Origin: an uncultured Thermoleophilia bacterium
GTDB lineage: Bacteria; Actinomycetota; Thermoleophilia; UBA2241
Assembly: GCA_963739595.1 (NCBI GenBank)
Contig: CAVUBA010000031.1
Location: forward strand, 7,375 to 71,374
DNA: 64,000 bases
Direction of reading: 5' to 3'
The first letter of the stretch is position 1. Each line of letters begins with the position of its first letter. Under the pieces are notes generated by a model. That model made no database searches. It saw only the letters and a program-made list of their open reading frames with translations, and was not told the origin of the DNA. Shown one piece after another: positions 1 through 64,000 of this stretch. The position numbers and the translations under genes were made by a program.

Positions 1-651
1 TTCCAGGTGAGGTAGTAGGTCGACGTCGGGACGGCCACGCCGCTGACGCCGTCGTCCTGCATCGTCTTCTGCGCCGGCACGTACACGAGCTGCTGGTAGT
101 AGGCGTCCGGACCGCTGAAGTAGCCGTCGAGGGCGGTGATGTCCTTGACGCCGACCTTCTTGCTGGCGAGGGCGCCGAGCATGGCCGTGCGGAGCAGGCT
201 GAACCCGTTGGCGCGGACCTTCATGCCGGTCGAGAAGACGGTCTGCTCGTCCTTGAGCGTGCCCGGCGGCTCGAGCCGTCGCGGCGCGCACGGCGATCTC
301 CTCCTGCTGGGCGCTGAGCTGGCCGAGCTTGGCGACGAGTTCGTTGCGAGACAGCGCGGTGGGGTCGAGCATGATCGCCGAGACCTGCTTGCCCAGGTTC
401 ACCGAGTCGTCGATGGCGGTGGAGACACCCGTGAAGTAGGTCTCGTAGGTGCCCACCTTGCGGCTGTGCTGGCAGCTGCGCGCCCACCACGCCAGGCCGA
501 AGACGACGATGAAGAGGATGAGCGCCAGGATGATGAGGCGCTGGATGCGGGTGCGGCGGCGGTTGGAGGGTCGGCGACGGGATGAGTGAGCGGAAGGCGG
601 GCCGCCGGTACCTGCCGGCGCGCGGCTCGTCTCGTCGTCGAAGAAATCCAC
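1..651 (-). pseudogene. Hypothetical membrane-anchored protein, C-terminal part cut by the window edge; reading frame changes near 276
   Basis: GTG at 651, Arg-rich N-terminus, then one hydrophobic helix (RLIILALILFIIVVFGLAWW). The GC3-biased coding signal runs to position 1, but only after skipping one base near 276. Absent from the ORF track because no stop lies inside the window. Confidence 0.45.
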
Positions 652-677
652 CCTGCGGACCCCCGTTACTAGGTGGA

Positions 678-764
678 TGGTGGGCGAGGGGGGACTTGAA
701 CCCCCACGAGCGTAAGCTCACTAGACCCTGAACCTAGCGCGTCTGCCAATTCCGCCACTCGCCC
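678..764 (-). tRNA. tRNA-Leu (anticodon CAG), CCA encoded
   Basis: Reverse strand reads GGGCGAG-TG-GCGGAATTGGCAGACGCGC-TAGGT-TCAGGGT-CTAGT-long variable arm-GGGGGTTCAAGTCCCCC-CTCGCCC-A-CCA. This is a cloverleaf with a class II variable arm and is very close to the E. coli tRNA-Leu(CAG) layout. Confidence 0.9.
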
Positions 765-834
765 ACCGGCTCTAACAGGGTTCGGATTGTACCATACCGA
801 ATACCGAGCAAACCTCAGGACGAAGCGAGCCCTC

Positions 835-2541
835 ATGTCCGTCGCAGCACCGAACACCGCACCCTATTTCGCAGACTGGCGCGACCGCTACGAGCTGGTC
901 GGCAAGATCGGCAGCGGCGCGTTCGCGGACGTGTACGAGGCCTACGACGTCACGCTCGACGAGCCCGTCGCGCTCAAGATCGTGCCCGACGGCCGCGCGC
1001 TCAGCGCGCGCATCGTCCGCGAGGTCGAGGCCGCGGCGGCGCTCGACCACCCCAACATCGTCGCGCTCTACGACTGGTTCGCCGACAGCGAGGGCAGCAT
1101 CCTGGTCTGGGAGCTCGTGCGTGGCCAGTCGCTGGACCAGCTCGGTCACGAGCTCGGCGACGGGGACGTGGTCGCCATCGGCGTCGAGATGCTCGACGCG
1201 CTCGCGTACGCGCACAGCCAGGGCATCATCCACCGCGACGTGAAGCCGCAGAACGTCATGCTGGGCGACGACGGCCACGTCAAGGTCATGGACTTCGGCA
1301 TCGCCCACCTCATGGACTCGGACACGCTCACCGGGGACGGCGACGTGATCGGCACGATCGCGTACATGTCGCCGGAGCAGGCGGCCGGACGCCGAGTGCA
1401 GCCGCCCACCGACGTCTACTCGGCCGGCATGGTGCTCTACGAGCTGCTCGCCGGGGCGCACCCGCTGCGCGGGGACACCCCGGCGGAGACGCTCTCCAAC
1501 GTCGCCGGGGCGCGGCTGCCGTCGCTGGCCACGCTCCGGCCGGACCTGCCCGCCGATCTGATCACGCTCGTCGACGCGGCCTGCGCGCCGCGTCCGGCCG
1601 AACGCCCGACGCCGGCCTACCTCAGCGAGGCCTTCGACGACCTGCTGCGCAGCGGCCGCCTGCAGGCGCGGCGCCTCCAGAAGGCGCGCCGCCTCGTCCG
1701 GCCGCTGGGCCGCGCCGCCGAGGTCGCCGAGCGCGCCGGCGGCGCGGCGCTCGCCGCAGTCACCAGCGCCGTCGTGCTCGGCGCGCTGCCGGCCTATCCG
1801 CAGAGCTGGACGCTGCCGCTGGTCGCCGTGAGCGCGGCCGTCTGGGCGGTCGTCCCCGAGGCGGGGCTCGCGTTCCTGCTCGGCTCGCTCGCGTTCCCGC
1901 TCTTCAACGTCTCGCTCAGCGCCGGCGCCGCGTATCTGGCCTTCGCCGTCGCCGTCTTCCTGATCGCGCGCGCGAGGCCGATCACGGCGCTGTGGCCGGC
2001 GTTCGCGCTCGTGCTCACGCCGGCCTACCTGACGCTGCTGGCGCCGGCGGCCGCGGCGCTGCTGGGGCGCATCCGCGGCCCGCTCACCGCCGCCTGGGCC
2101 GGCGCCGGGACCGTGCTCTTCCTGCTGCTCACGCGCGCGCAGCGCGGCCCGTTCACGCTGGAGCAGCCGCGCTGGCCCGTCGGCCGGGACGTCGCCGCCG
2201 CCGGCGACCCGTTCACCGCCGCCGGCCGCCTGCTCGCGCACGCGCTGGCGGCGCCGACGCTTCTGCAGGCCGCCGTCTGGGCGGGCCTGGCGGCGGCCCT
2301 GGGCTACGCCCTGACGCGCCGCCGCCTCGAGCACCGTCTCTGGATCTGGTCGCTCTCGTTCGCCGCCGTGTTCGCGGTGTACCGCATCGTGCCGGTGGTC
2401 GTGTGGCACTATCCCGCGAGCCTGTGGCCGCTCGTGTGGAGTGTGGCCGTGCCCGCTGCCGTGATACTCTTGCCGCTGGTCCTGACCACCGGAGAAGCAC
2501 CGGAGGAAAGCGACGATGGGGATCTTCAGGAAGGCGAATAA
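835..2541 (+). CDS. Ser/Thr protein kinase with polytopic membrane C-terminal domain
   Basis: Hanks kinase motifs (GSGAFADVY, VALK, HRDVKPQNVML, DFGIA, SPEQ) followed by about 300 aa of repeated hydrophobic helices. ATG 835 is preferred over the ORF-track start at 787. The 3' end overlaps the fhaA-like start. Confidence 0.85.
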   Translation: MSVAAPNTAPYFADWRDRYELVGKIGSGAFADVYEAYDVTLDEPVALKIVPDGRALSARIVREVEAAAALDHPNIVALYDWFADSEGSILVWELVRGQSLDQLGHELGDGDVVAIGVEMLDALAYAHSQGIIHRDVKPQNVMLGDDGHVKVMDFGIAHLMDSDTLTGDGDVIGTIAYMSPEQAAGRRVQPPTDVYSAGMVLYELLAGAHPLRGDTPAETLSNVAGARLPSLATLRPDLPADLITLVDAACAPRPAERPTPAYLSEAFDDLLRSGRLQARRLQKARRLVRPLGRAAEVAERAGGAALAAVTSAVVLGALPAYPQSWTLPLVAVSAAVWAVVPEAGLAFLLGSLAFPLFNVSLSAGAAYLAFAVAVFLIARARPITALWPAFALVLTPAYLTLLAPAAAALLGRIRGPLTAAWAGAGTVLFLLLTRAQRGPFTLEQPRWPVGRDVAAAGDPFTAAGRLLAHALAAPTLLQAAVWAGLAAALGYALTRRRLEHRLWIWSLSFAAVFAVYRIVPVVVWHYPASLWPLVWSVAVPAAVILLPLVLTTGEAPEESDDGDLQEGE

Positions 2542-3324
2542 CAAACTCGAAGGCCTGGTCGAGGGCGGCTTCGGGCGCGCGTTCAAGTCGAGCGTGCAGC
2601 CGGTCGAGCTCGCGCACAAGCTGGCGAAGGAGATGGGCGACCACAAGACGGTCGGCGTCTCCAACGTCTACGTGCCCAACGAGTTCGACGTCTACCTCGG
2701 CAAGGACGACTTCGATCACCTGGTCTCGTTCGAGGACTCGCTCAAGACCGAACTGTCCAACTACGTCACGGCGTTCGCGCGCCGCGAGGGCTGGACCCTC
2801 GTCGCGCCGCCGCGCATCGAGCTGCACTGCGACGAGGACCTGCGCCTCGGCGAGTTCGGCATCGCGACGCGCACCATGGGTGCGCCGGTCGAGATGCCCG
2901 GCGACGACGCGTTCGGAGCTCCGGCCGCGCTCGTGCCGCCCGCTGCGGCCGTCGCGCCCGGCCCCGTCATCGACCAGACCGTGCTCTATCAGGAGCGGCC
3001 GTGCCCGCCGCTGCCGCGGCCGCCGCTGCCCCGCGCGCCTCGTCTGCGCGCGGCGTCCTGCGCGGCCGCCAGGGCGACTACCAGCTCACGGAGGCGGTCA
3101 CGGTGATCGGCCGCAGCCGGCGCTGCGGCATCGTCCTCACCGACCCCAACGTCTCGCGGCAACACGCCGAGATCCGCAAGCAGGACGACGGCTTCATGCT
3201 GCTGGACCTCGGCTCCACCAACGGCACGCGCGTCAATCGCCGCGACGTCAAGCAGGTCGTGCTGCAGCACGGAGACCGCATCGAGCTCGGCACCACCGAG
3301 CTTCTGTTCGAGAGGCAGCCCTGA
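2516..3324 (+). CDS. fhaA: FhaA-like protein; the DUF3662-type N-domain (2516 to about 2995) and the FHA domain (3001-3324) lie in different frames, so this is either one gene with a 1-nt frame error or two adjacent genes
   Basis: The N-terminus MGIFRKANNKLEGLVEGGFGRAFKSSVQPVELAHKL is typical of the FhaA N-domain. The C-terminal piece has FHA motifs (VIGRS...NVSRQHAEI...LLDLGSTNGTRVN). Synteny with fhaB-pstP-rodA-pbpA-pknB supports the call. Confidence 0.75.
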
Positions 3325-3387: not shown

Positions 3388-3937
3388 ATGATCGACATCG
3401 TCCTGCTCGTCCTCAAGATCGGCATCCTCGTCCTGCTCTACCTGTTCATCTGGCAGGTCGTGAAGACCGCCGTGCGGAGCGTGCGCGGCGGCGGCGCGGC
3501 CGCTCCGTCCGCCGCCCCCGACGTGGTCCTGCCGGCCGGTGACAGACTCGCGCCGACCTTCACGCCGGCCGAGCGCGAGCAGCGCCGCGAGGATCGCGAC
3601 GTCGAGCGCACCATGGACGGCCAGAAGATGGACTTCTCGGCGCACATCAACCCGCGCCTCGTCGTCGAAGAGAGCACCGATCATCCCGCCCGGCGTCATC
3701 TTCCCGCTCGAGGGCTGGATCACCGTGGGCCGCGCCGCCACCAGCGACATCGTGCTCGACGAGCAGTTCGTCTCGACCACCCACGCGCGCCTGGTCCCGC
3801 GCGGCCAGTTCTACTTCGTCGAGGACCTCGGCAGCACCAACGGCACCTTCCTCAACGAGAAGCAAGTGACGGACGCGCAGCTGAGGATGGACAGCCGGCT
3901 GCGCATCGGCGAGACCACGTTCCGCTACGAGGAGTGA
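3388..3937 (+). pseudogene. fhaB: FhaB/FipA-like protein (N-terminal TM helix plus C-terminal FHA domain); frame disrupted near 3673
   Basis: MIDIVLLVLKIGILVLLYLFIW TM helix in frame 1 and an FHA domain (ITVGRAATSDIVLDEQFVSTTHARL...VEDLGSTNGTFLN) in frame 2. The two join cleanly if one base (the a at 3673) is removed. Confidence 0.75.
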
Positions 3938-7986: not shown

Positions 7987-9865
7987 GTGAGCGACGTGTT
8001 CCAGCCAGAACAGGTTGTCGGCGGCCGGTACCGCGTGGTGCGCAAGCTCGGCGGCGGCGGCATGGCCGACGTGTACCTGTGCGAGGACCTCACCCTCGGC
8101 CGCAACGTCGCCATCAAGGTGCTGCTCCAGCGCTATCTCAACGACCCCACCTTCGTGGAGCGCTTCCGCCGCGAGGCCAAGGCGGCCGCGGGGCTCAACC
8201 AGCAGAACCTGGTGAGCATCTACGACTGGGGAGAGGTCGACGGCACGTACTACATCGCCATGGAGTACGTGGAGGGCGAGACGCTCAAGGACCTCATCCG
8301 TCGTCGCGGCCGGCTGAGCGGCAACGAGTCGGTGGCGGTCACGCTGCAACTCCTCGCCGCGGTCGACTTCGCCCATCGCAGCGGCATCGTGCACCGCGAC
8401 ATCAAGCCGCAGAACATCATGATCGACCCCCACGGGACCGCCAAGGTCATGGACTTCGGCATCGCGCGCGCCGGCGACTCCGGGATGACGGAGGCCGGCT
8501 CGATCCTCGGGACCGCCCAGTACCTCGCTCCCGAGCAGGCCAAGGGCTACCCGGTCGACGAGCGCTCCGACCTGTACTCGGTCGGCGTCTGCCTCTACGA
8601 GATGCTCACCGGCACCGTGCCGTTCAAGGGCGACAGCGCCGTCACTGTGGCGCTCAAGCACGTCAACGAGGTGCCGGTGGAGCCGTCCGTGCTGGTGCCG
8701 GGCATGCCGTACGCCCTCAACCAGATCGTGCTCAAGGCGATGGCCAAGGACCCGGCCGACCGCTACCAGTCGGCGGCCGAGTTCGCGCGCGACCTGCGCG
8801 CCGCCAAGGAAGGCGGCCCCATACAGGCGGCCGCCTTCGACGCCGGCGGCGAGCGGACGCGCGTGATGGCCGCGGCCGGCCTGGACGCGGCCGGCACCAC
8901 CTCCGTGCTCGACCAGCCGATGCCGCCGCGGCGCAAGAAGTCGAAGTGGCCGCTCGTGCTCGTGATCATCCTCCTGCTGATCATCGCCGCCGTGGCCGCC
9001 GCACTGTGGTGGACGATGAGCGGCAGCCAGTCCGCCGTGCCCAGCGTGGTCGGCCTGAGCAAGGCCGCAGCCGTCAAGGCTCTGGAGAATGGCGGCTTCA
9101 AGGCCGGCGTGCAGGAGGAGTTCTCCGACCGCGTCGCCTCCGGCTTCGTGAGCCGTCAGGCGCCCACCGGCGGCACCAAGATGCGCGAGGGCGCCACCGT
9201 CGACATCTGGGTGAGCAAGGGGAGCCAGAAGGCCCCTCCGCTGCCCGACTTCAGGGGCTGGACGGCGACGGCCGTGGACGACTGGCTGACCAGGAACGAC
9301 CTGGTGGGCGATCCGCAGACCGGCAAGTCGACGACGGTCGCCTCGGGCCAGGTGTACAAGCAGGATCCGGCGGCGGGCACTGAGGTCAACCGCGGCGACA
9401 CCGTCACCTACTGGGTGAGCAGCGGCAAGCCGCAGGCGACGGTGCCCGACCTGAGCAACCTTTCGCAAGCGGACGCCGAGACGGCGATCGCGGGCGCCGG
9501 GCTCAAGCTCGGGACCGTCACGCCAGACCACGAGCACGACGGTCCCGGCAGGGCTGGTGATCAGCCAGGACCCGACCGCGGGCACGAAGGTCGACAAGGG
9601 CTCGACGGTGAGCTTCGTCGTCTCGACCGGCTCGCCGTCGCCGAGCCCCTCGCCGTCGTCCACGGCGGCCGGCGTCGCCGTGCCCAACGTCTACGGCATG
9701 CAGTCCACGGCCGCGGCGTCGCAGCTCAGCGCGGCCGGGCTCACCGTGGCGTTCCGCCAGAAGAACAACACCGGCCAGGAACCCGGCACGGTGGTCAAGA
9801 TCAAGCCCGACGCCGGCACGGTCGTCCCGGCGGGATCGACGGTGCTGCTCGTCATCGCGTCGTAG
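7987..9865 (+). pseudogene. pknB: PASTA-domain Ser/Thr kinase PknB; frame disrupted near 9525
   Basis: Kinase motifs (HRDIKPQNIMI, DFGIA, APEQ), a TM helix and PASTA repeats. The last PASTA repeats (LVISQDPTAGTKVDKGSTVSFVVS ... VVKIKPDAGTVVPAGSTVLLVIAS) continue in the +1 frame (ORF 9557-9865). Confidence 0.85.
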
Positions 9866-9866
9866 C

Positions 9867-16433: not shown

Positions 16434-17094
16434 GTGCTGCTCGATCGCCGCAGGGTCAAGTTCTGGCAGAAGATCGTTTTCGGGTTCATGGCGTTCCTCA
16501 TGGCCGCCTTCCTCGTCGTCGGGTACTCGGGCGTGCTCAACGGCTGCACCTGGTTCAACAGCGCCCAGCAGGACGTGACCCAGCAGCTCGACCAGCAGGT
16601 CACGAAGTACCAGACCGCCACCACGACGAATCCGACCGACGTGGCCGCCTGGACGAGCCTCGCCGAGGCGTACCTGTCGCGGTCGTCGACGCAGGCGCAG
16701 GGCTCCGCGGCGCTGACGTCGGACCTCACGCAACGCGGCCGCGGCCTACGTCAAGGCCGACAAGCTGCTCGCCAAGCAGAAGGGCGCCGCCATCAAGAAG
16801 CAGCGGCTGGACGTGCTCACCAGCCTCGCCGGCGTCTACAGCCAGATCCGCGACTCCCAGGCTGCGGCGAAGGTCTACGGCGACATCACGGCCCTCACGC
16901 CGAAGAGCGCCGAGGCGTTCTTCAATCTGGGCGCGGCCGCGAGCACCGCCGGCGACACCACCACGGCGATGCTGGCCTTCACCCGCTTCCTCGAGCTCGA
17001 CCCCACGTCGCCGGATGCCGCGGCGGTCAAGGACTGGATCGCCAAGAACACGCCGCAGACGACTCCGACTCCCACTCCATCGCCGACCAAGTAA
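16434..17094 (+). pseudogene. Membrane-anchored TPR-repeat protein; frame disrupted near 16733
   Basis: N-terminal TM helix (IVFGFMAFLMAAFLVVGY). The TPR-like C-terminus (AEAFFNLGAAASTAGDTTTAMLAFTRFLELDP) continues in the +1 frame (ORF 16813-17094). Confidence 0.6.
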
Positions 17095-36501: not shown

Positions 36502-36546
36502 GGCATCAATGCCGAGCCGTAAGGCTCGTCTCAGATGGTCTTGGTC

Positions 36547-39262: not shown

Positions 39263-39278
39263 AACATTGAGCAATGTT
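39263..39278. promoter_or_regulatory. Second palindrome in the cytochrome upstream region
   Basis: AACATTG-AG-CAATGTT has perfect 7-bp arms and sits in a locally AT-richer intergenic region. Confidence 0.3.
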
Positions 39279-39429
39279 GCGCAAGCCGCGCCAAAAGCGC
39301 ACAGCGGCGCGGCGGCCCACCACGGATTCTCGAGATTCCCCCCTCACGGTCTGATAGGCCTACCCACTGGAGCGCGAGACTTGACCGTTGTGCGCGTGCC
39401 CTGGAGAGGCGTCGAGCGCGTGAGGCCGG

Positions 39430-40611: not shown

Positions 40612-40727
40612 CAGGACTCTCACCTCCGCCGTCTGGTTCGGCGCCGCGGTGGCGAAGCCTGCCCGCGGCGCCGCCGGCCGGTCTCGCAGGGCGGCCAGGT
40701 TTGCCCGCGGCGGGGCGGGGTACAAAG

Positions 40728-40756
40728 TTGACAACGAGTGACTCAGATTTTATGCT
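40728..40756 (+). promoter_or_regulatory. Putative dnaK operon promoter with embedded imperfect inverted repeat
   Basis: TTGACA-17 nt-TATGCT lies 36 nt upstream of the dnaK ATG. The spacer contains GAGTGACTC. The wider GTTGACA-N7-ACTCAGA resembles the HspR operator (CTTGAGT-N7-ACTCAAG) at 9 of 14 positions. Confidence 0.5.
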
Positions 40757-40791
40757 CCATCCAGAGTAATCCCCCCAAGGAGGAACGTTCC

Positions 40792-42693: not shown

Positions 42694-42715
42694 GACCAAG
42701 GAGGAGGTGTCGACC

Positions 42716-43172
42716 ATGGCGATCATCAGATGGGACCCGTTCCGCGAGATGACCCAGGTCCAGAACCAGTTCAACCGGCTGGTCGACCAGGTCTGGAACG
42801 ACCGTCAGGAGAGCTGGCTGCCGGCGGTCGACGTCTTCGACAAGAAGGACGCCGTCATCCTCAAGGCCGAGCTCGCCGGCATGGACCCCGACGACATCGA
42901 GATCGAGGTCGAGGACAACGTGCTCACCATCAAGGGCGAGCGCAAGTTCGAGGAGAAGGTCGAGGACGAGCGGTACTACCGCGTCGAGCGCCGTTTCGGC
43001 AGCTTCCAGCGCAGCCTCGCCCTCCCGCAGGGCGTCAAGGCCGACGAGATCCAGGCCGGCTACGAGGACGGCATCCTCACGGTCACCGTACCGAAGGCCG
43101 AGGCAGGAGAAGCCGCAGCGCATCGAGGTCAAGGCCAAGAAGACGGTCGAGGCCGCGAGAGCCGAGGTCTGA
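42716..43172 (+). pseudogene. Hsp20/alpha-crystallin small heat-shock protein; frame disrupted near 43106
   Basis: ACD motifs (PAVDVFDKKDAVILKAELAGMDPDDIEIEV...GILTVTVPK). The C-terminal tail EKPQRIEVKAKK...AEV-stop continues in the +1 frame. Confidence 0.8.
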
Positions 43173-43284
43173 CACAGATGACGCCGCGCGGACCGGCGGG
43201 CGGGGCGCAGCGCCTCGCCCGCCGGGACCCCGGTGTGACGGAGCGGCCCCGGCCGCGCAGCGCACGACGAGACAGAGAACGGAC

Positions 43285-43884
43285 ATGACGGACAGGAAGC
43301 ACACGACACAGGACCAGAAGCGCGCGAAGGCCGCGAAGGCCGCGAAGGCCGCCGAGGCGCTGGCTGCAGAGCCCGCCCCCGCGGCGAGCGAGGCCACCGA
43401 GGCGCAGATCGCCGAGGCCGCCGCCCAGGCGATCGCCGACGAGCTCGCCGTCGTCACGCGCGAGCGCGACGACTACCTCGACCACCTCCGCCGTCTCAAG
43501 GCCGAGTGCGACAACTACCGCAAGCGCGTGCAGCGCGACAACGAAGAGCTGCGTCTGCGCGCCGCCGAGACGGTCGTCGAGTCCTTGCTGCCGGTCATGG
43601 ACAACATGAGCCGCGCGCTCGAGGCCGGGGACAAGCACGAGGAGGGCCAGCTGCTGGCCGGCCTCGGCCTGGTCGCCGACCAGCTGCGCGGCACGCTGGC
43701 CGGTCACGGCCTCGAGGAGATCGAGGTCGAGCCGGGCACCACGTTCGACCCCGAGTACCACGAGGCGATCGTGGCCCAGCCGTCCGAGGAGTATCCCGAG
43801 GGCACGGTGACCCAGGTCCTGGAGCGCGGCTACCTCCTGCACGGCAAGCTGCTGCGGCCGGCCAAGGTCATCGTGGCCAGTTAG
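43285..43884 (+). CDS. grpE: Nucleotide exchange factor GrpE
   Basis: DYLDHLRRLKAECDNYRKR...FDPEYHEA...GYLLHGKLLRPAKV. Confidence 0.9.
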   Translation: MTDRKHTTQDQKRAKAAKAAKAAEALAAEPAPAASEATEAQIAEAAAQAIADELAVVTRERDDYLDHLRRLKAECDNYRKRVQRDNEELRLRAAETVVESLLPVMDNMSRALEAGDKHEEGQLLAGLGLVADQLRGTLAGHGLEEIEVEPGTTFDPEYHEAIVAQPSEEYPEGTVTQVLERGYLLHGKLLRPAKVIVAS

Positions 43885-43893
43885 CGGGCGGAG

Positions 43894-45024
43894 ATGACGG
43901 ACTACTATCAGACGCTCGGTGTCTCCAAGAACGCCTCGCAGGACGAGATCAAGAAGGCGTTCCGCAAGCTGGCGCGCGAGCACCACCCGGACAAGAACCC
44001 GGGCAACAAGGTCGCCGAGGAGAAGTTCAAGGAGGTCAGCTCGGCGTACGAGACGCTCTCCGATCCGGAGAAGCGCAAGCAGTACGACGAGCTCAGCCGG
44101 CTCGGCGCCTTCGGCCCCGGGCCGGGCGGCGGCTTCCGTCCCGGCGCCGGCGGCTCCCAGGGCTTCGACCCCAGCATGTTCGGCCAGGGCAACGTCCAGT
44201 TCGACGTGGGCGACCTCGGCGACATCCTCGGCAACCTGTTCGGTGGCGCGGCGGGCGGCGCCGGCCGCGGCCGCCGCAGGGCGGCCGAGCGGGGCGCCGA
44301 CCTCCAGGCCAACGTCACCGTGTCCTTCGACGACGCGCTGAGCGGCGTGACCGTGCGCGTGCCGGTCGACAAGGCCGACACGTGCGAGACCTGTCACGGC
44401 AGCGGCGCGAGGCCGGGCACGTCGCCCAAGGTCTGCCCGGAGTGCCAGGGGCGCGGCATGGTGGCGCGCAACCAGGGGCCGTTCGCCATGTCGGAGCCGT
44501 GCCCACGGTGTCACGGGCAGGGCACGATCATCGAGGACCCGTGCCCGACGTGTCGCGGCACGGGCGTCGAGCACAAGACCCGCCGGTACAACGTCAAGGT
44601 CCCGGCGGGCGTCAAGGACGGCAGCAAGATCCGCATCAAGGGCAAGGGTGAGGCCGGCTTCCGCGGCGGCCCGGCCGGCGACCTCTTCGTGCGCGTGCGC
44701 GTCGAGACCGACGAGCTCTTCGACCGGCACGGCGACAACCTCCTCGTCGAGGTGCCGGTCACGGTGTCGGAGGCGGCGCTCGGCGCCACCGTCAGGGTCC
44801 CCACGCCGGGCGGCGGCCGGGTGTCGCTCAAGGTCCCGGCGGGCAGCCAGGACGGCCGCAAGCTGCGGCTGCGCGGCAAGGGCATGCCCAAGCTCAAGGG
44901 CGGCCACGGCGACCTCCTCGTCGAGCTCCGGGTGCAGATCCCCGGCAAGCTGACCAAGGACCAGAAGCAGCTGTTCGAGAAGCTCGCGGCGACGTTCCCG
45001 GACCCGCGTTCGACGGCTGAGTAA
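43894..45024 (+). CDS. dnaJ: Hsp40 co-chaperone DnaJ
   Basis: J-domain (DYYQTLGV...HHPDKN), G/F region and four CxxCxGxG Zn-finger repeats. Confidence 0.95.
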
Positions 45025-45055
45025 GTGCGCGGAGACCGACGGCGGAGACCTGGTC

Positions 45056-45470
45056 ATGAGACAGGAACACGACAGCGACAGACCGCTCTTCATGATCTCC
45101 GTGGCCGCGGAGCTCGCGGGGATGCACCCGCAGACGCTGCGCCTGTACGAGCGGCGCGGGCTGGTGCGCCCGCAGCGCACGGCCAAGAACACGCGCCGCT
45201 ACTCGGAGCGCGACGTCGAACGGCTGCAGCGCATCCAGGAGCTCACCGAGCTCGGGACTCAATCTTGCCGGCGTGGAGCGCGTGCTCGCGATGGAGGCGC
45301 AGCTGGATGCCCTGCACCGCCAGATGATGGCGCTCCAGACGCAGCTGGCGGAGGCCGCCGAGGCCATGCGGCGCGAGGTGGAGCGTGTCGAGCGCTCGCA
45401 CCGGATGGACCTGGTGCCGGTGAGCCGCGCCCAGGTCGTCCACATCGGCCGCCGCCGGCGCCACGCCTGA
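45056..45470 (+). pseudogene. hspR: MerR-family heat-shock repressor HspR; frame disrupted near 45257
   Basis: HTH ([44 protein letters not shown]). Continuation [16 protein letters not shown]... lies in the +1 frame (ORF 45273-45470). Position after dnaJ is typical. Confidence 0.8.
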
Positions 45471-45553
45471 CGCCGCGGATCGGGGTCCGACCCTGCGGGT
45501 CCCGCCCGCGCCACCCTTCCACAGAAGTCAGCGACTACCCAAGGAAACCACAC

Positions 45554-47974
<2,421 letters not shown>

Positions 47975-47997
47975 CCGCGTGCGGCTATAGTCGCGGC

Positions 47998-48261
47998 ATG
48001 GGCAAGGCCAGCAACGCAGTCCTCGGCGGCGTCGTCGGCGCCGCCGTCGGTGTGGTCCTCGCGCCCCGGCTCGGAGAGTCGCGGCGCGAGGCGCTCGGGC
48101 GGCTCCGCCTCGCCGCTCGTTCCGGCCGGGGCTCGGTCCGCGCCTTTTCCGGGACGCCCTGCGCGGCGGAGGGCCGCGCCGCGGTGCACGATCAGGGCGA
48201 CGCGCCACGCGCCGCCGGTGCGGCCTCGGCCGCTTCTGCAGGAGGAGATCACGATGGATGA
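47998..48261 (+). CDS. YtxH-like small protein
   Basis: GKASNAVLGGVVGAAVGVVLAP is a YtxH-type N-terminus. The C-terminal half is low complexity, so its extent is uncertain. Confidence 0.45.
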   Translation: MGKASNAVLGGVVGAAVGVVLAPRLGESRREALGRLRLAARSGRGSVRAFSGTPCAAEGRAAVHDQGDAPRAAGAASAASAGGDHDG

Positions 48262-48565
48262 CCCCCGGGCCGGGACCGAGGCCATGCGTGACAGCAGCGG
48301 GTTCAAGGAGCTCGAGGTCGTGGCGTACATCGGCGAGTTCAAGATCGTCGGCATCGCCCACTTCGGCGTCGGCCAGCGCGCCAGCTCCCGGCGCCCCTCG
48401 GACTACATCCGCGCGTTCAGCGACAGCCGGCTCACGCTCTCGAAGGTGCGCATCTACGGCAAGGGCAACCAGGACCTGTTCGAGACGGCACCCTTCATCA
48501 TCCTGAACCTGGACAAGGTCGACTTTCTCTACGCGCGCGACGACCCCGACGCGGTGGCGGAGTGA
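48254..48565 (+). CDS. Hypothetical protein
   Basis: ATG 48254 preceded by AGGAGGAG. 103 aa with non-repetitive composition. Confidence 0.55.
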   Translation: MDDPRAGTEAMRDSSGFKELEVVAYIGEFKIVGIAHFGVGQRASSRRPSDYIRAFSDSRLTLSKVRIYGKGNQDLFETAPFIILNLDKVDFLYARDDPDAVAE

Positions 48566-48584
48566 CCACGGCGGGCACCGTTCG

Positions 48585-49274
48585 ATGACGTACGAGGTCG
48601 AGCTCCTCATCCCGACGGCGCGCTTCGTCTTCAGCGTCGAGGGCGACGCCGTCGAGGTGCTGCCCGAACACCGCTCGCCGCAGGCGTTCGCGGAGTACCG
48701 CGAGCTGCGCGCGCGGCGGCCGGTGGTGGGCATGACGACGTTCCCCAACACCGTGCTGCTGCGCGGGCCGAAGACGATCCTCGTCGACCCGGGCCTGCCG
48801 CTGCAGAACGACCCCGCGCTGCGCGCGCTCGAGGCGCGGGGGCTCTCGGCCGCCGACGTGGACCTGGTCGTGCTCACGCACGCCCATCTGGACCACGCCG
48901 GCGGCTGCGCGTCCGTCCCCGCGCCCGTGGCCGTCCACGAGCTGGAGACGACGTCGGCGTACTGGCCGCTGGTCGGGGGACTCCTCGAGCTGCTGCCGCT
49001 CGATCTGCTCACCGGGGAGGCCGGCGAGCTGGCGCCCGGCCTCGAGTGGGCGCTCACCCCCGGTCACTGCGACGGGCACATCAGCCTGGCCGTCGAGACC
49101 GCCGGCGGGCGGGTCGTGCTGTGCGGCGACACCATCGGGCCCGGCAGGGACGAGTTCGACGCCATGGCGCCCGGCGGGCCGGCGGCCGACGTGGTGCTCG
49201 CCTCGTGGCGGCGCATCCGCGCCTGGGACCCGGCGCTCATCATCGCCGGGCACCTGCCGCCGTTCGCTCCGTGA
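48585..49274 (+). CDS. MBL-fold metallo-hydrolase
   Basis: THAHLDHAGG (HxHxDH) motif. Confidence 0.8.
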   Translation: MTYEVELLIPTARFVFSVEGDAVEVLPEHRSPQAFAEYRELRARRPVVGMTTFPNTVLLRGPKTILVDPGLPLQNDPALRALEARGLSAADVDLVVLTHAHLDHAGGCASVPAPVAVHELETTSAYWPLVGGLLELLPLDLLTGEAGELAPGLEWALTPGHCDGHISLAVETAGGRVVLCGDTIGPGRDEFDAMAPGGPAADVVLASWRRIRAWDPALIIAGHLPPFAP

Positions 49275-49355
49275 GGCCGGCCGCGCGGCGCAGCGTGCCG
49301 CGGCCGGCCTGTGCTACACTCAGGCCCCTTGTGACCACGCCCGGGAGACTCCTGC

Positions 49356-52943: not shown

Positions 52944-55830
<2,887 letters not shown>

Positions 55831-55939
55831 CGCTGGCCTGACCTGCGTTCGGCGTTCTCGCAGTCGGGCTCAAAACGGTCGTGAACCTACCCGAAACGGC
55901 AACCGACAGGCAAGCGTTTCAGGCTGCTCGCTTCATATC

Positions 55940-55957
55940 GGTTAATATTTGGTTAAT
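55940..55957. repeat. Tandem GGTTAAT direct repeat (11-nt spacing) in an AT-rich island
   Basis: cGGTTAATatttGGTTAATcatt sits inside the only markedly AT-rich stretch (about 55925-55985) of the ligA-mtbB intergenic region. Confidence 0.4.
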
Positions 55958-56574
55958 CATTGCTCAATACATGAATCCTAGTCTCCGTCTTGCGATGCTT
56001 CCCGTCTCCGAGAAGCCCGCTGCCAGCGCCAAGTGGCTGGTACCTCCTATCTTCTTGGTTCGCCCCGGCCCCGGGCGGACCACGGCCTGAGGGCCGACGG
56101 GCGCCGCCCCCAAAAGCGGCTCTGCTCGTCGGCCCTCGGCCACCTTAATGGCGCGGATCCCAGACGATCGCACCAGGGTCCGCGCCTGCCCCGTAACCGG
56201 GCAGCAACCCTTCCTTCGCGCGGGTTCGCGCTGCTTCACGCCGGTCGCAACATTCTCTGGGGATGCTGTGAGTGGCTCCTTTCGCTGGCAAGCGAAGACC
56301 CCCCCACCACGAGGGTTTGCCCCAAAGCCCTTGTTCGAGGCCCCGTTCCCCGCGGGGCCTCGTCCCTTTGATGGCCCCGGGCGACCGGTTCCGCCGGCGT
56401 CCGCAGCGGTTCCCTCACCTTTGGCCCGCGCCGCCGTGAACTTTGCCGAAGTATCCGCCGCTGACAGGCGCGGCGCGGGCCTGTAGCCTCGGGTCGCCGC
56501 CTGGGGAAGCCGCGAGAGTCGCGGCCGGTGCTCCGGCGGCGGCACGCACACCACGAGGGCCGACGGAGGGGGCG

Positions 56575-57958
56575 ATGGAAGGTATCCCGACGCGTATGGG
56601 CGACGGGTCGCTGGTGCGGATGACCCGGGCGCAGATCGAGGCCGACATCCACGCCGGCAGTCGAGGCGGGCGCCAGGCGGGCCAAGGTCGAGCCGCTGGG
56701 CGACGACGAGATCGCGCACCTCGCCGACATCTTCGCGAGCCGCGCCCGGTTCAGCGCGGTCGACATCGGCGACGAGGTCATCCTCACGTCCGACGGCGTC
56801 GGCAGCCAGGACGCCGGCTCGCGCATCACCGACCTGCAGAACTACGAGCAGACGATCTGCACCGACACGGTCGAGCTGTATCACCACGACTACTCGTTCA
56901 AGCCGATCAAGCCGGTCCTGCCGTTCGAGCAGGAGATCATGCGCCAGACGCAGCTGCTGCTCACCATCCCGGTCGCCTACGGCGCGATGCCGGACCTCGG
57001 GCGCTACACCGTGCCCGACGGCCCGGTCCCCAACTGGTCGCAACTGCTGCCGCTGGGCCGCATCGACGAAGCCCGTGCGGCCCAGGAAGAGGCCGTGGAG
57101 GCCGCGGTCGAGGACATCGTCTACGTCGCCGAAGGCATGTACGAGGCCGGCGCCGACGGCATCAACCTGGACACGGCGGGGGCGGCCGGCGACGCCGACT
57201 TCCTGGCCGCCCTCAAGGCCATCGAGCGCATCCGCGCGAGGCATCCGGACTGGAGCATCCAGATCGGCATGGCGAGCGAGTTCGTGCTCGGCATGCACGG
57301 AGGACTCGAGTACGACGGCGTCCGCCTGGCCGGCCTGTGGCCGGCCGCCCAGATGCGACTGGCGGCCAAGGCCGGCGTCTCCATCTTCGGGCCGGCCATC
57401 AACGTCAACACGGGCAAGACGGTGGCCTGGAACGTGGCGCGCACCTGCACCATCGTCAAACCGTGCACGGACGCCGCCACGATCCCCATCCACCTCAACG
57501 GGGGGATGGGCGTGGGCGGCGTCCCCATGCACGCGCTGCCGCCGGTCGACGCCGTCTCGCGCGCCTCGCGCGCGTGCGTCGACGTCCTGCGGCTCGACGG
57601 CTTGTAGATCGGCGCCGGCGACAACCACAGCCAGGGGATCGGCCATGGTGTCGCGTCGGGGATGGGCGGATTGCGGACCGCCGGAGATCTGGTGGCCCGC
57701 GTGCAGATGACCCGACGGATGCGGCTTCCCGAGGCGAAGGCCTACGTGGCGGACAAGCTGGGCGTGAGCCCGGCCGACCTGAGCGACCCCGTGACGATGT
57801 CGGACGTCCGCCGCGAGCGCGGACTCGGGACGATCCCCACGGAGGACACGGCGACGGTCAACGACGCGCTGGCGATCGAGGCCAAGGTCAACATCGCCCG
57901 CGTGCTCGACGTGCCGGTGCGCTCGGTCGAGCGGTTCCGGGCGCTCACGGGCGGCTGA
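56575..57958 (+). CDS. mtbB: Dimethylamine methyltransferase MtbB homolog, copy 1; in-frame TAG at 57605-57607 at the pyrrolysine position; also one frame disruption near 56659
   Basis: Family-wide motifs: RMGDG, YGAMPDLGRY..PDGP, ADGINLDTAGAAGDAD, GMASEFVLGMHG, GKTVAWNVAR, GMGVGGVP, PPVDAVSRAS. Then LDGL-TAG-IGAGD, followed in the same frame (ORF 57662-57958) by LRTAGDLVARVQMTRRMRLPEAKAYVADKLGV. Typed CDS because the TAG is interpreted as recoding. Confidence 0.8.
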
Positions 57959-58012
57959 GCCGGGCGGCCGAGCGACCCCCTCGCGAGACCTGCCGCCGCG
58001 CTCAGCGCCCGG

Positions 58013-59173
58013 TCAGGGCGCGACCAGCGGCACGGTGCCGAGCTGTCCGCCGTCGGCGTAGTAGACCGCGGTCCCGAGAGGGGCGCCCTGGGCCGGCGGT
58101 CCCGCCAGGCTCTGGGGCAGCCCTTCGAGGACGACGCTCACGTCCGCCGCGAGTCGACACATGGCGCTAAGCCCCGATGCCGCGACGGCGTCTACCTGGC
58201 CGCCCGTGTCGATGGGAATCTGGGCCACGACGGCGCCGGCCTCGACGATCGCGCGCTTGCCGTAGAGCGCGTCGGCCCACTTGTAGAGCTTGAGCGCGTC
58301 CTTGAACTCCTGGGTTCTCGTGGGCTCATGCATGGTGACCACGATGAAGCTCCTGTTGTGGTACTTGCCTGACGCAACGAGGACACGTCCGGCCCCCGCC
58401 GTGGAGCCCGTCTTGATGCCGTTCACCCAGTCGAACGTCTCATTGAAGATGTTGTGCGAGTGAAGGTGCGCGATGTGGTTGGGCGGCCACTTGACCGTCG
58501 CGTAGACACGCCAGGCGAGATCGCGGAAGCGCGCGTTGCGCATCGCCACCCGGCCCAGCTCCGCGAGGTCGCGCGCGCTCGTGTAGTGCCCCGGCGTGAC
58601 CTGGCCCGACGAGTTGACGTAGTGAGTGTTCGCGAGGCCGAGCTGGGCGGCTCTTGCGTTCATGAGGACGGCGAACCTGGGCTCGCTGCCGGAGACGCGC
58701 GTCGCCAGCGTCACGGCGCAATCGGTGGCGCTCTTCACCATGAGGCCGAGCAGCAGGTTGTGTACGGTGATGCGGTCTCCGGCATGGAGGCCGAGTACTG
58801 CGCCACGCACGTGCATGGCCGCGCGGGGGACGGTCACGTACTGATCGAGGTTCTTGAGGTGCTCGAGGACCAGCATGGCCGTCATGACCTTGGTGCACGA
58901 GGCCGGGAGCAGGTGACGGTCGGGCGCCTTCGCGTAGAGGATGTAGCCAGTGGAGCGGTCCATGACCACGGACGACCAGGCCTGGACCGTAGGGCCAGCC
59001 GGGGCGGTCGTGGCCGCTTTCGCCCCGGATCCCCGGTCGCGGACGACCGCCAGTGCGACGGCAAGCGCCACGATCAGGAGCAGCGTCGCGAGCGCCAGCA
59101 CGACGCGCCTGCGGGCGCGCCCGGACGATGAGCGCGTGCGCTTCGAGTCCTCCATGCAAGTAGCATACCCCAC
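58013..59173 (-). CDS. D-alanyl-D-alanine carboxypeptidase (peptidase S11)
   Basis: N-terminal TM/signal segment, an SxxK active site (ASCTKVMT) and an SGN-type motif (NSSG). The start could be ATG 59155. Confidence 0.8.
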   Translation of the reverse strand: MGYATCMEDSKRTRSSSGRARRRVVLALATLLLIVALAVALAVVRDRGSGAKAATTAPAGPTVQAWSSVVMDRSTGYILYAKAPDRHLLPASCTKVMTAMLVLEHLKNLDQYVTVPRAAMHVRGAVLGLHAGDRITVHNLLLGLMVKSATDCAVTLATRVSGSEPRFAVLMNARAAQLGLANTHYVNSSGQVTPGHYTSARDLAELGRVAMRNARFRDLAWRVYATVKWPPNHIAHLHSHNIFNETFDWVNGIKTGSTAGAGRVLVASGKYHNRSFIVVTMHEPTRTQEFKDALKLYKWADALYGKRAIVEAGAVVAQIPIDTGGQVDAVAASGLSAMCRLAADVSVVLEGLPQSLAGPPAQGAPLGTAVYYADGGQLGTVPLVAP

Positions 59174-59227
59174 GGAGCGGTTCCCGCGGCGCGCGGGACT
59201 GGGTACACTTGCCGCGCACTCTCGCGG

Positions 59228-59303
59228 GCCGGCGTAGCTCAGTTGGCAGAGCAGCCGCCTTGTAAGCGGCAGGTCGACGGTTCGAACCCGCCCGCCGGCT
59301 CCA
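59228..59303 (+). tRNA. tRNA-Thr (anticodon TGT), CCA encoded
   Basis: GCCGGCG-TA-GCTCAGTTGGCAGAGC-A-GCCGC-CTTGTAA-GCGGC-AGGTC-GACGGTTCGAACCCGCC-CGCCGGC-T-CCA (one mismatch in the T stem). Confidence 0.88.
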
Positions 59304-59571
59304 GCGCGGGAGCGCCGCCTGGGGGTCGTCGGGAGGCGGGGTCGGTCGGCCGCGACCGGTCCGCAGCCGGCCCCGGTCTTTGAGCCCTTGAGAGGCTCTG
59401 CGGGCAGGCCGTCCGGCCGGTGGCGCCTCCCGAGCGCGCCGCTGTAGACTGGCGCGCGGAGGCCCGCCGGACAGCGGTCGAATCGCTTCGCTCACAACGT
59501 GGAAGCTCGCGGGCCTCGCACGCTCCCACGGCGCAGGCGGTCGATCCGGATGAAGCACGGAGGTGATGCTG

Positions 59572-60962
59572 TTGGAGCCCAGGATCCCCACTCGCATGGG
59601 TGATGGGTCGCTCGTCGAGATGACCCGCTCCGAGATCAAGGCCGATCTCGAAGAAGGCACCCGGATCGCGGCCAAGAAGGCCAAGGTCGACGTCCTCACG
59701 CAGGACGAGCTCGACCACCTGCTCGACATCTACGCATCGGCCGCGCGCTTCACCGCGGTCGACATCGGCGAAGAGGTCGTGCTCAGCAACGACGGCACCG
59801 GGACCAAGCACATCGGCAACCGCGTGCAGGACCTGCAGAGCTACGAGACGCTGCTCGGCGTCGACATCCCCGAGCTGTGGCAGGCCGACTACTCCTACAA
59901 GGCCGTCAAGACCAACGTGGCCCACGAGGGCCAGAGCATGAAGATCGCGCAGGCGCTGCTCACCAACCCGGTGCAGTACGGCGCCATGCCCGACCTGGGC
60001 CGCTACTCGAAGCCTGACGGCCCCATCCCCAACTGGTCCGAGCTGCTGCCGATGGGCAAGATCGACGAGGCGCGCGACGCCCAGGTCGAGGCCTGCGCGA
60101 TGCTGGTCGAGGACATCAACTTCGTCGCCGACGCCATGGTCGAGGCCGGCGCCGACGGCATCGACATGGACACGACGGGGGCGGCGGGCGACGCCGACTT
60201 CCTCGCCGCCCTCACCGCCTGCCGCATGCTGCGCGAGAAGTACCCGTGGCTGGGCATCGAGATCGGCATGGCGAGCGAGTTCGTCCTCGGCATGCACGGC
60301 CAGCTCGAGTTCGACGGCGAGCGCCTCGCCGGCATGTGGCCCAAGAAGCAGCTCGAGATGGTCACCGCGGCCGGCGCCAGCATCTACGGCCCGGCCGTCA
60401 ACATCAACACCGGCAAGTCGACCGCCTGGAACATCGCCCGGGCGATCACCTTCATCAAGCCGGCCGCCGAGGTCGCCACGATCCCGGTCCACGTCAACGT
60501 GGGCATGGGCGTCGGCGGCGTCCCGACGTGCCTGTTCCCGCCCGCCGACGCGACGATCGCGGGCCAGCAAGGCCTTCGTCGAGATCCTCAAGATCGACGG
60601 CTACTAGGTGGGCACGGGCGACCCTCTCGGCATGGAGGGAGCCCACACGCAGGCGTCCGGCATGGGCGGTATGCGGGCGGCGGGAGATCTCGTCGCTCGG
60701 ATGCAGATGACCAGGCGTATGCGTCTCAAGGAAGCCAAGCAGTACGTGGCCGGCAAGCTCGGCTGCACCACGCGCGACCTTTCCGATCCGGTCGCCATGG
60801 AGACCATCCGGCAGGACCACGGCCTCGGCCTTGCTCAGCATGACCTCCTCCACGCATCCGGCGCTGCCGGGCATGATGGAGGCCAAGTTCAACATCAGCA
60901 AGCTGCTCGACATCCCGATCAACTCGGTCGAGCGGTTCAAGGAGCGCACCTCGGGCTACTGA
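59572..60962 (+). CDS. mtbB: Dimethylamine methyltransferase MtbB homolog, copy 2; in-frame TAG at 60605-60607 at the pyrrolysine position; also frame disruptions near 60556 and 60830
   Basis: Same motif series as copy 1 (roughly two-thirds identical by eye). KIDGY-TAG-VGTGDPLGM closely matches archaeal VDGI-Pyl-IGVGDPLGM. Continuation MRAAGDLVARMQMTRRMRLKEAKQYVAGKLG and the tail MMEAKFNISKLLDIPINSVERF read through to TGA 60960-60962. TTG 59572 lies 8 nt after GGAGG (the ORF track starts at 59563). Confidence 0.8.
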
Positions 60963-61267: not shown

Positions 61268-62281
61268 ATGCTCCGCTCGTTCAGACTGGCCTTCGCGCTG
61301 GCGGTCGTGCTTCTGCTCGCCGTCGCCGGCGTCGCCGCCGGTTGCGGCAGCAGCAGCTCGAGCTCGACCAGCAGCGCGAGCCCCACCGCCGCCACCTCCA
61401 AGGCCTACAAGATCGGCATCACCCAGATCGTCACCCATCCGGCGCTCGACGCCGCCGTGCAGGGGTTCAAGGATGCCCTGGCGGAGAAGGGCTACACCAA
61501 CGTCTCCTACGACATGCAGAACGCCCAGGGCGACATGGCGACCGCCGCCAGCATCGCGCAGAAGTTCGCCGGCGAGAAGCTCGACCTGATCCTCGGCGTC
61601 GCGACCCCGACGACGCAGGCCGTGGTGAAGGCCGTCACGACGACGCCGATCGTGTTCACCGCCGTCACCGACCCCGTCGGCGCCGGCCTCGTGACCGATC
61701 CCAAGGCTCCGACCGCCAACGTGACCGGCGTCAGCGACCTGCAGCCGGTCAAGCCGATCCTCGAGCTGGCGAAGCAGCTCAACCCCAACGCTCAGAGCGT
61801 GGGCATCGTCTACAACGCCGGCGAGTCCAACTCCGTCTTCATCGTGAAGCAGGTCGAGGCTACGGCCGGCCCACTCGGCCTCCGCATCATCAAGGCTCCT
61901 GCCAGCACGTCGGCCGAGGTGCAGGCGGCGGCCCAGTCGCTGGTCGGCCGCGTCGATGCGATCACCGTGATCGGCGACAACACCGCCGTCTCGGCGCTCG
62001 AGGCGATCGTCAAGGTCTGCGACCAGAACAAGATCCCGCTGATCGTCGGCGACACCGACAGCGTCAAGCGCGGCGCCGCCGCGGGCTACGGCTTCGACTA
62101 CAAGGACCTGGGCAAGCAGGCCGGCTACCAGGCCGCCCAGATCCTCAGCGGCACGCCGATCAAGGACATCCCGGTCGAGTACGCCAAGAACCTGCAGCTC
62201 TCGATCAACGAGAAGGCCGCGGCGGCTCAGGGCGTCACCATCCCGGCCGACCTGGCGAGCCAGGCCGTCAACAAGTTCTGA
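61268..62281 (+). CDS. ABC transporter substrate-binding lipoprotein (ABC_sub_bind family; the 'putative tryptophan/tyrosine transport system' type)
   Basis: Signal peptide with lipobox VAAGC, a Ser-rich linker and a periplasmic-binding fold. AAAGGAG ribosome-binding site. Confidence 0.75.
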   Translation: MLRSFRLAFALAVVLLLAVAGVAAGCGSSSSSSTSSASPTAATSKAYKIGITQIVTHPALDAAVQGFKDALAEKGYTNVSYDMQNAQGDMATAASIAQKFAGEKLDLILGVATPTTQAVVKAVTTTPIVFTAVTDPVGAGLVTDPKAPTANVTGVSDLQPVKPILELAKQLNPNAQSVGIVYNAGESNSVFIVKQVEATAGPLGLRIIKAPASTSAEVQAAAQSLVGRVDAITVIGDNTAVSALEAIVKVCDQNKIPLIVGDTDSVKRGAAAGYGFDYKDLGKQAGYQAAQILSGTPIKDIPVEYAKNLQLSINEKAAAAQGVTIPADLASQAVNKF

Positions 62282-62376
62282 TCTTCACCGGCTCGCGTCG
62301 GTCGCGAGCGCGATAGACTGGAGGGGGCCGGAGCCGCGGGAGCGGCTCCGGCCCCCGACCTCGGAAGGACCCGCTC

Positions 62377-63279
62377 GTGCTCGTCACCATCCAGAGCGCT
62401 GTGCTCCAGGGGCTCATCTACAGCTTCATGGTGCTCGGCGTGTTCATCACTTTCAGGGTGCTCGACTTCCCCGACCTCACGGTCGACGGGAGCCTGCCGC
62501 TGGGGGCGGCGGTCACGGGCGCCCTCATCGTCGGCGGCCATTCGCCGCTGCTGGCCACCGGCGCCGGCGTGGCCGCGGGCCTCGGCGCCGGCGTCGTCAC
62601 CGGGTTCCTGCACATCCTCCTCAAGTCCGGCGAGAGCGACTCCGCCAACTACGGTCCCAAGCTGCTCGCCGGGATCCTCACGATGACCGCTCTCTACACG
62701 GTCAACCTGCGGATCATGGGCCGCAGCAACATCCCGCTGCTCGGGGTACAGGTCATCTTCGACAAGGTCGGGGCTCTCTTCGACCTGACGATGATCGGCT
62801 GGAACATCGTGATCGCGGTGGGCGTGCTCACCGTGGTCGTCAAGTACATCCTGGACTGGCTCCTGCACACCGAGTTCGGCCTCACGCTGCAGGCGACCGG
62901 CGACAACGAGCAGATGATCCGCTCGCTGGGGACCAACACCAATGTCACGCGCATCGTCGGGCTCGCCGTCGCCAACGGTCTCGTCGCGCTTACAGGCTCT
63001 CTCGTCGCCCAGCAGCAGGGGTTCGCCGACGTCGGCATGGGCATCGGCACGATCGTCGCCGGCCTCGCCGGCGTGATCATGGGCGAGGTCATCTTCGGCG
63101 TGCGCAGCGTCAGCTGGGTCCTGTTCAGCGTGATCGGCGGCTCGATCGTCTACCGCTTCCTGATCGCCATCAGCCTCCGACTCGGCATCGCGCCGACCGA
63201 CCTCAAGCTGCTCACCGCGGTGCTGGTCGTGGTGGCGCTCTCGATCCCCACCGTGCGGAAGAAGGTCGTGCGGCTGTGA
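62377..63279 (+). CDS. ABC transporter permease (partner of the ABC_sub_bind system)
   Basis: Polytopic 300-aa protein. The stop overlaps the next start (GTGA). Confidence 0.75.
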   Translation: MLVTIQSAVLQGLIYSFMVLGVFITFRVLDFPDLTVDGSLPLGAAVTGALIVGGHSPLLATGAGVAAGLGAGVVTGFLHILLKSGESDSANYGPKLLAGILTMTALYTVNLRIMGRSNIPLLGVQVIFDKVGALFDLTMIGWNIVIAVGVLTVVVKYILDWLLHTEFGLTLQATGDNEQMIRSLGTNTNVTRIVGLAVANGLVALTGSLVAQQQGFADVGMGIGTIVAGLAGVIMGEVIFGVRSVSWVLFSVIGGSIVYRFLIAISLRLGIAPTDLKLLTAVLVVVALSIPTVRKKVVRL

Positions 63280-64000
63280 GCGCTCCCGCCGAACTCAAGC
63301 TCAGCGGCCTCCGCAAGGTCTTCTTCGCGGGCACCGCCAACGAGGTCGCGGCTCTCCGCGGCATCGACCTCGACGTGCCGGCCGGGCAGTTCGTGACGAT
63401 CATCGGCTCCAACGGCTCCGGCAAGTCGACCCTGCTCAACGCCGTCGCCGGCACGTTCCCGCTCACGGATGGCAAGGTCCTGCTCGGCGACCGCGACGTG
63501 ACCAGGCAGGCGGAGCACGTGCGCAGCCGCTCGATCGGCCGGGTCTTCCAGGACCCGCGCGCCGGCACCGCGCCGTCCATGACCATCGAGGAGAACCTCG
63601 CCATGTCGCTGCTCCGCTCGCGGCGCAGCGGCCTGCGCATCGGCGTCACGAACAAGCGGCGCGAGGCGATGCGCGGGCAGCTCTCGCGCCTCGGCATGGG
63701 GCTCGAGGGGCGGCTCAAGGCTGGGGTGAACAAGCTGTCGGGCGGCCAGCGGCAGGCGATGTCCCTGCTCATGGCTACGATCGCCGAGCCCAGCCTCCTG
63801 CTGCTGGACGAGCACACCGCGGCGCTCGACCCCAAGGTCGCGGCGACGATCATGGACCTCACCGGCGAGATCGTCGCCGAGCGCAAGCTCACCACGCTCA
63901 TGGTCACCCACAACATGGAGCTGGCGCTGCGCTACGGCGACCGGCTGATCATGATGCATGCCGGCCAGGTCGTCCTCGACCTCGCCAGCGAGCAGAAGCA
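63276..64000 (+). CDS. ABC transporter ATP-binding protein, 3'-truncated by the window edge
   Basis: Walker A GSNGSGKST, signature LSGGQRQ and Walker B LLLLDE. Not in the ORF track because no stop lies in the window. Confidence 0.85.
   Translation, partial: MSAPAELKLSGLRKVFFAGTANEVAALRGIDLDVPAGQFVTIIGSNGSGKSTLLNAVAGTFPLTDGKVLLGDRDVTRQAEHVRSRSIGRVFQDPRAGTAPSMTIEENLAMSLLRSRRSGLRIGVTNKRREAMRGQLSRLGMGLEGRLKAGVNKLSGGQRQAMSLLMATIAEPSLLLLDEHTAALDPKVAATIMDLTGEIVAERKLTTLMVTHNMELALRYGDRLIMMHAGQVVLDLASEQK

Follow-up and report, generated by a model that had tools for sequence, protein, structure and literature searches.

Probable merging of strain alleles as the main source of single-base frameshifts in a Thermoleophilia metagenome bin

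Why do so many conserved genes of an uncultured Thermoleophilia bacterium change their reading frame within a single stretch of DNA? The question is raised by a window of 64,000 nucleotides (the whole stretch analysed here, positions 7375–71374 of contig C31 in genome G000), for which a preliminary description made from the sequence alone had listed 21 single-nucleotide frame disruptions, nearly all of them taken for one extra base. G000 is a metagenome bin of 2,312,797 bases in 39 contigs, the smallest of 11,099 bases, with 70–72% GC, completeness of 66.56% and contamination of 0.61%; because all 39 contigs exceed 11 kb at 67% completeness, it was most likely assembled from long reads. Its indels are private to this assembly, spread over the whole genome and biased towards insertions, where the adjacent letters match two alleles of one column in related genomes. 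We have next to no doubt that the frameshifts are an artefact of assembly and not features of the organism, and merged alleles of mixed strains are very probably the main source of the indels.

For one window protein, the nearest named records belong to metagenome-assembled genomes (MAGs) of Thermoleophilia and Actinomycetes. Five genomes of the same genus (G016, G018, G013, G011 and G012) could be aligned across 41–62 kb of the window, with identities over positions 44800–49300 of 95% for G016, 91% for G018, 90% for G013 and G011 and 83% for G012. Counts given below for single sites are numbers of alignments, not of independent genomes, as some loci overlap or may come from the same genome. 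Frame shifts were registered at all 21 sites, no more than about 5 bases from where they had been placed. At 19 of them the window firmly differs from its aligned relatives by one base, gained or lost; the other two, 38767 and 38783, lie in a variable gene for a multihaem cytochrome and are only likely, with +1 modulo 3 in 3 of 5 alignments each. Gains of one base make up 19 sites, and two are losses. One loss, at 55633 in ligA, had been recognised as such (21/22 alignments net −1), while position 2998, previously read as an extra base, proved to be a lost C at 2996–2997. The clearest gains are at 45257 (24/24 alignments), 43104 (19/19) and 53351 (27/28). The first four sites were also compared specifically with G016, G018, G013 and G012; the last of these often nets 0 at compared sites because of its own nearby insertion. 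None of the shifts is conserved in any relative, and all are without counterpart at 82–95% identity.

The nature of the extra base bears on its origin. Many sites show two adjacent letters where relatives have one or the other, as in hspR (GGG/GGA), Hsp20 (GAG/CAG) and mtbB (CTT/CTG). Five G000 contigs were therefore compared with five relatives, using isolated insertions that were covered by at least three relatives, had matching anchors and lay in sequence with a local identity of 80% or higher, and simulated random insertions run through the identical code served as a null. Both adjacent letters were alleles of one relative column in 46 of 79 insertions (6 of 11 in the window only), against 10–12% for random ones; an earlier version of the test on the window alone gave 118/291 against 12–20% expected. 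The flanking column was polymorphic at 59/79 insertions (41.5% expected), and in 46 of these 59 cases, instead of 36%, the extra letter matched the second allele of that column (p = 8e-11). The merged columns occupied third, first and second codon positions 23, 13 and 10 times, following biallelic columns in general (56/24/20%). The insertions of the relatives themselves behave in the same way: both letters were alleles in 40/59 for G016, 21/42 for G018, 59/125 for G013, 83/155 for G011 and 11/23 for G017, that is 47–68% versus 8–11% for random insertions. Counts of −1 events in the relatives from this comparison were considered unreliable and left out. An apparent excess of transversions in merged pairs (C/G in 155/260 versus 47% of biallelic columns) was discarded, since the simulated null gave 61%.

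As had been noted earlier, many extra bases lie outside homopolymers: 61 of the 79 inserted bases stand in runs of 1, 12 in runs of 2 and 6 in runs of 3, with no longer run among them. Among 143 private indels of G000, 101 are +1 and 11 are −1. The position mostly outside runs, the roughly 9:1 preponderance of insertions and the 46 tandem-allele cases together point to a consensus built over mixed strains. The initial reading as uncorrected long-read-type indel error was right about the artefact, but the error is of a more specific type. The source sample would have contained at least two strains in similar proportions, and assembly would have merged them into a single set of contigs. Where the strains differed, having X or Y at a position, the consensus step may often have written XY, giving a +1 frameshift, and less often it may have dropped the differing column, giving −1. 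By simple arithmetic, (0.58−0.12)/0.88, the tandem-allele kind accounts for about half of the insertions or more; the remaining ones may be of the same kind with unsampled alleles or ordinary low-depth errors.

Several observations weigh against this interpretation. We infer the strain mixture, the sequencing technology and the responsible program step alike, and the mixture rests on alleles of relatives rather than on reads. A search of sequencing runs listed 24, of which 20 contain part of 36500–46000, each with at most 0.39 of its words; they carry no weight as evidence. No second allele was found among 3–5 relatives for 33 of the 79 insertions, 53351 being an example. The density of insertions showed no correlation with divergence from G016 (rho 0.06, p 0.5). 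Insertions at the boundary between the first and second codon positions were somewhat scarce (76/291 versus 31–37%; 19–33% versus 37–44% in a second version of the test), which is a weak effect. A shortage of homopolymer duplications (84/375 versus 42–53%) did not persist in a second version (23% versus 27–32%, with a span of 20–36% versus 25–32%) and was left unused as unstable. Finally, a toy likelihood model, in which XY won in only two of six parameter sets, only near 50:50 and with substitutions modelled much rarer than deletions, fails to establish the program step.

The same 33 insertions would suit plain consensus errors of low-depth long reads with no strain mixture, and so would the private character of the indels, the higher rate at low completeness described below and the report, in the accessible part of 10.1101/2025.04.22.649783, that long-read assemblers emit indels unsupported by any read. 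Such errors should nevertheless resemble random insertions, which yield both-allele pairs at 10–12% and not at the 58% registered. Residual nanopore errors, as far as the accessible text of PMC9262707 goes, are homopolymer indels, contrary to the distribution over runs found here. Moreover, no excess of indels was detected near the ends of G000 contigs. Indel counts in 5-kb bins show overdispersion (variance/mean 1.77). We therefore consider it improbable that plain errors caused most of the indels. Basecalling could also go wrong systematically at a methylated DNA motif and produce extra bases away from runs, and AGCA does occur in the vicinity of 13 of 79 sites, where 4.3 would be expected (p = 4e-4, uncorrected for 136 words). 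However, none of 14 named motifs accounts for the set (GANTC 3 versus 3.5 expected, GATC 7 versus 4.9, AGCT 4 versus 4.1, CCWGG 7 versus 4.4, with the biggest excess for GGNCC, 15 versus 9), every enriched 4- to 6-mer covers at most 22 of the 79 sites, and matching to alleles is not predicted by a motif at all. The motif counts already largely refute this explanation, which we regard as very unlikely.

The pattern concerns the whole assembly, and the indel rate, which the preliminary description proposed to follow across the genome, is indeed genome-wide. Shifts were called by a codon-pair Viterbi model (hidden Markov model, HMM) with frameshift states, trained on G000. For 19 of the 21 window sites it called an event no more than about 35 bases away (three of these 19 failed its flank filter), and it gave extra calls at gene junctions; those at 23932 and 42693 were rejected as junctions, and further window calls fell at 38168, 38272 and 58221. 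With junction look-alikes dropped, G000 has 853 +1 and 165 −1 calls in 2,028,801 coding bases (0.42 and 0.08 per coding kb). Unfiltered calls occur on all 39 contigs at 0.15–0.79 per kb, and 647 of 1,904 gene models carry at least one shift. The essential genes rpoB and ligA are broken, and pylS too. In G000 a frame change interrupts rpoB at position 8374 of contig C34, the net difference of +19 from G018 being an 18-base in-frame difference plus one, and rpoB is also split, elsewhere in the gene, in G016, G013, G011 and G061.

Rates in other genomes were estimated from samples of 18–126 kb each, not from whole genomes. No calls were obtained in 104,169 coding bases of contigs from the Joint Genome Institute (JGI; L065–L077, the best-ranked 13 of 80 JGI loci), and four fragmented MAGs gave no +1 and one −1 in 139,524, so that short-contig relatives together lack +1 calls across 244 kb of coding DNA. 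The long-contig MAGs G002, G003, G006 and G007 were likewise free of +1 calls in 117,342 coding bases. Other long-contig relatives carry their own +1 shifts at different places, at 0.03–1.41 per kb with G012 at the top, and the +1 rate is lower in more complete genomes (Spearman −0.80, n = 15, with rounded completeness values and with related genomes that do not count as independent). In alignment, loci L021–L024 of G012 showed 253 private insertions in 38,641 clean coding columns, yet the frame of its rpoB is intact. Among 30 of 80 named loci, chosen as actinobacterial and not counted as independent because they may overlap the set of relatives, 11 named "contig_N" had 41 +1 calls in 192,696 coding bases, and the other 19 had 2 in 215,577. 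According to the accessible part of PMC12313526, the catalogue with the isolate prefix of these 11 loci was produced from nanopore reads by Flye assembly and one Medaka polish.

A real and recent genome-wide decay, by pseudogenisation or in a mutator lineage, would also break many genes at once. In its favour is the ratio of nonsynonymous to synonymous substitution rates (dN/dS), which is slightly higher for broken than for intact genes both against G016 (0.244 versus 0.183) and against G018 (0.201 versus 0.164). However, the same gene sets give 0.18–0.20 versus 0.16–0.18 in pairs without G000; the gap persists there and is thus an effect of gene class rather than a relaxation specific to G000. 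Decay would be expected to favour deletions, as natural decay in bacteria does, to bring nonsense changes and to spare essential genes. Here the spectrum is dominated by +1 changes, rpoB and ligA are broken, only one private stop was found among 71 gene ends tested, and GC of 70–72% is maintained on all contigs. Decay is accordingly a highly improbable cause. A private in-frame stop is located at position 34124 of contig C34 (minus strand), where three relatives have CGA.

Another biological possibility is that the bases are real and that a lineage with pyrrolysine and selenocysteine reads about 1,000 private +1 shifts, rpoB included, through four-base decoding or through +1 frameshifting on a wide scale. 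The lineage does recode, having a full pyrrolysine set and a tRNA-Sec, and the strong +1 bias suits a four-base step. Nevertheless, the real recoding here, the in-frame TAG of mtbB, is conserved in 45/45 and 47/47 alignments of the two genes, paralogues included, while the shifts are private, their places changing even between genomes of 95% identity. They share no motif and use all three codon boundaries, −1 events occur as well, and short-contig relatives are devoid of any +1. We find such decoding extremely improbable. The previous preference for artefact over biology is therefore upheld by shifts that are private to the assembly and by the lack of any signal of decay or recoding.

Pfam and NCBIfam support the names of the genes for FhaA, FhaB, a PknB-type kinase, PIP synthase, HspR and LigA, confirming the earlier naming of pknB, fhaB, the PIP synthase and hspR among those affected, although pieces of broken genes mostly fall under NCBIfam cut-offs, as expected of fragments. 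Other hosts supported in this way are a TPR protein, a glycosyltransferase-PHP protein, a uracil methyltransferase, the multihaem cytochrome, Hsp20, a HAD hydrolase and two MtbB proteins. At the left end of the window an extra base at 279–281 (minus strand) gives a synonymous GC(G/A) pair in an unnamed gene (3–651) with no Pfam or NCBIfam match. On the plus strand the loss at 2996–2997 falls in an fhaA-like gene (2516–3324), followed by gains at 3676–3678 in an fhaB/fipA-like gene (alleles A and C both found in relatives), at 9523–9524 in the PknB-type PASTA kinase gene, at 16730–16733 in the TPR gene (16434–17094), at 24065–24066 in the gene of a PIP-synthase-like CDP-alcohol phosphatidyltransferase (T and C both found) and at 26703–26707 in the glycosyltransferase-PHP gene (26023–27928). 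Three further events were absent from the original 21, all on the plus strand: −1 at 19801 in the final codons of topA, +2 modulo 3 at 24561–24563 in the tail of the same phosphatidyltransferase gene, and an indel at 53597–53632. Two minus-strand gains, at 29862–29864 (C and G both found) and 30434, share one TRAM/uracil-5-methyltransferase gene. The multihaem cytochrome gene (36500–38850, minus strand) has gains at 37120–37122, 37962–37965 and 38470–38477, where G016 and G011 net 0, apparently through their own insertions a few bases away, besides the two likely ones at 38767 and 38783. This large gene, with Cytochrome_C7, paired CXXCH motifs and MtrC/MtrF-like matches, is far more variable among relatives than its neighbours.

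The rest lies on the plus strand. Gains occupy 43102–43106 in Hsp20 (G and C both found) and 45257 in hspR (G and A both found). The extra T at 53351, with no matching allele pair in relatives, breaks the HAD hydrolase gene upstream of ligA and corresponds to the disruption listed earlier at 53353. In ligA itself the only one of the 21 is the −1 at 55632–55633, ahead of the BRCT domain; it falls on the third position of a codon, for which relatives have G, T or C. The indel at 53597–53632 makes the HAD tail read into ligA, and both form a single open frame at 53354–55636. Because the HAD frame ends before ligA in 23 of 25 relative loci (the other two run off the contig), this fusion is most likely another indel artefact. 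Gains in the two mtbB genes for dimethylamine methyltransferase are at 56658–56659 in the first, and at 60556 and 60830–60833 (T and G both found) in the second, upstream and downstream of its TAG, respectively.

These mtbB genes (Pfam Dimeth_Pyl; 56575–57958 and 59563–60962, plus strand) have their in-frame TAG at 57605 and 60605, with matches to Rfam PYLIS_2. Contig C14 (29022–36647) encodes PylB, PylC, PylD, a split PylS, tRNA-Pyl and a corrinoid protein, and PylS was matched in 49 of 54 genomes of the genus; TAG still terminates about 20% of G000 genes (294/1,445). A literature search for pyrrolysine in Thermoleophilia gave no apparently related report, and this is possibly a pyrrolysine lineage not described so far. 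ARAGORN calls a tRNA-Sec at c[59926,60023] of contig C37, so the genome may use selenocysteine besides pyrrolysine. Upstream of the first mtbB, the intergenic stretch 56200–56370 is strongly conserved in five relatives and is possibly a regulatory RNA or a promoter element; an Rfam E-value scan of 55800–56620 found nothing close to a gathering score. Between the two genes about 1.2 kb (57960–59230, with an open reading frame at 58013–59173 on the minus strand) is unaligned here in G016, G018 and G012 and ends at a tRNA-Thr gene (59228–59300); it is possibly a small insertion.

The importance of the indels is technical rather than biological. Since about a third of gene models carry a shift, pseudogene, split-gene and fusion calls in G000 are untrustworthy throughout, the HAD–LigA fusion being one such false product, and genes with window shifts should almost certainly be treated as intact. 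The completeness of 67% is probably understated. The same defect affects several of the long-contig relatives. As a diagnostic the tandem-allele signature is usable, and through it part of the strain variation of a sample becomes readable from the assembly alone.

Comparison with known systems places these indels close to, and apart from, several types of consensus error. Nanopore homopolymer frameshifts, in the available part of PMC9262707, are likewise private and fragment gene calls, but here 61/79 inserted bases are outside runs and insertions relate to losses as 101:11. Consensus errors at methylation motifs share single extra bases outside homopolymers and differ in having a motif. Haplotyping errors and unsupported indels in long-read metagenomes (10.1101/2025.04.22.649783) and strain collapse by Flye (PMC8302730) also bring two subpopulations into one contig and break reading frames, in the latter case those of marker genes; their accessible text deals with variable regions of several bases, or with indels lacking read support as a broad class, rather than with single-base tandem alleles. 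For metagenome bins that single-base form was not found in the literature searched, mostly without subscription papers and supplements, and the accessible parts of 10.1101/2021.06.10.447952 and PMC5889714 contain nothing on the mechanism. The general class, indels from merged haplotypes, is already in print: the accessible text of PMC5632298 reports that in FALCON assemblies merged haplotypes put indels at differing nucleotides. The early unphased FALCON consensus is thus alike in the position of indels, although that case is a diploid bird genome with data not shown, whereas here it is a bacterial bin in which the tandem XY was measured from relatives, not from reads.

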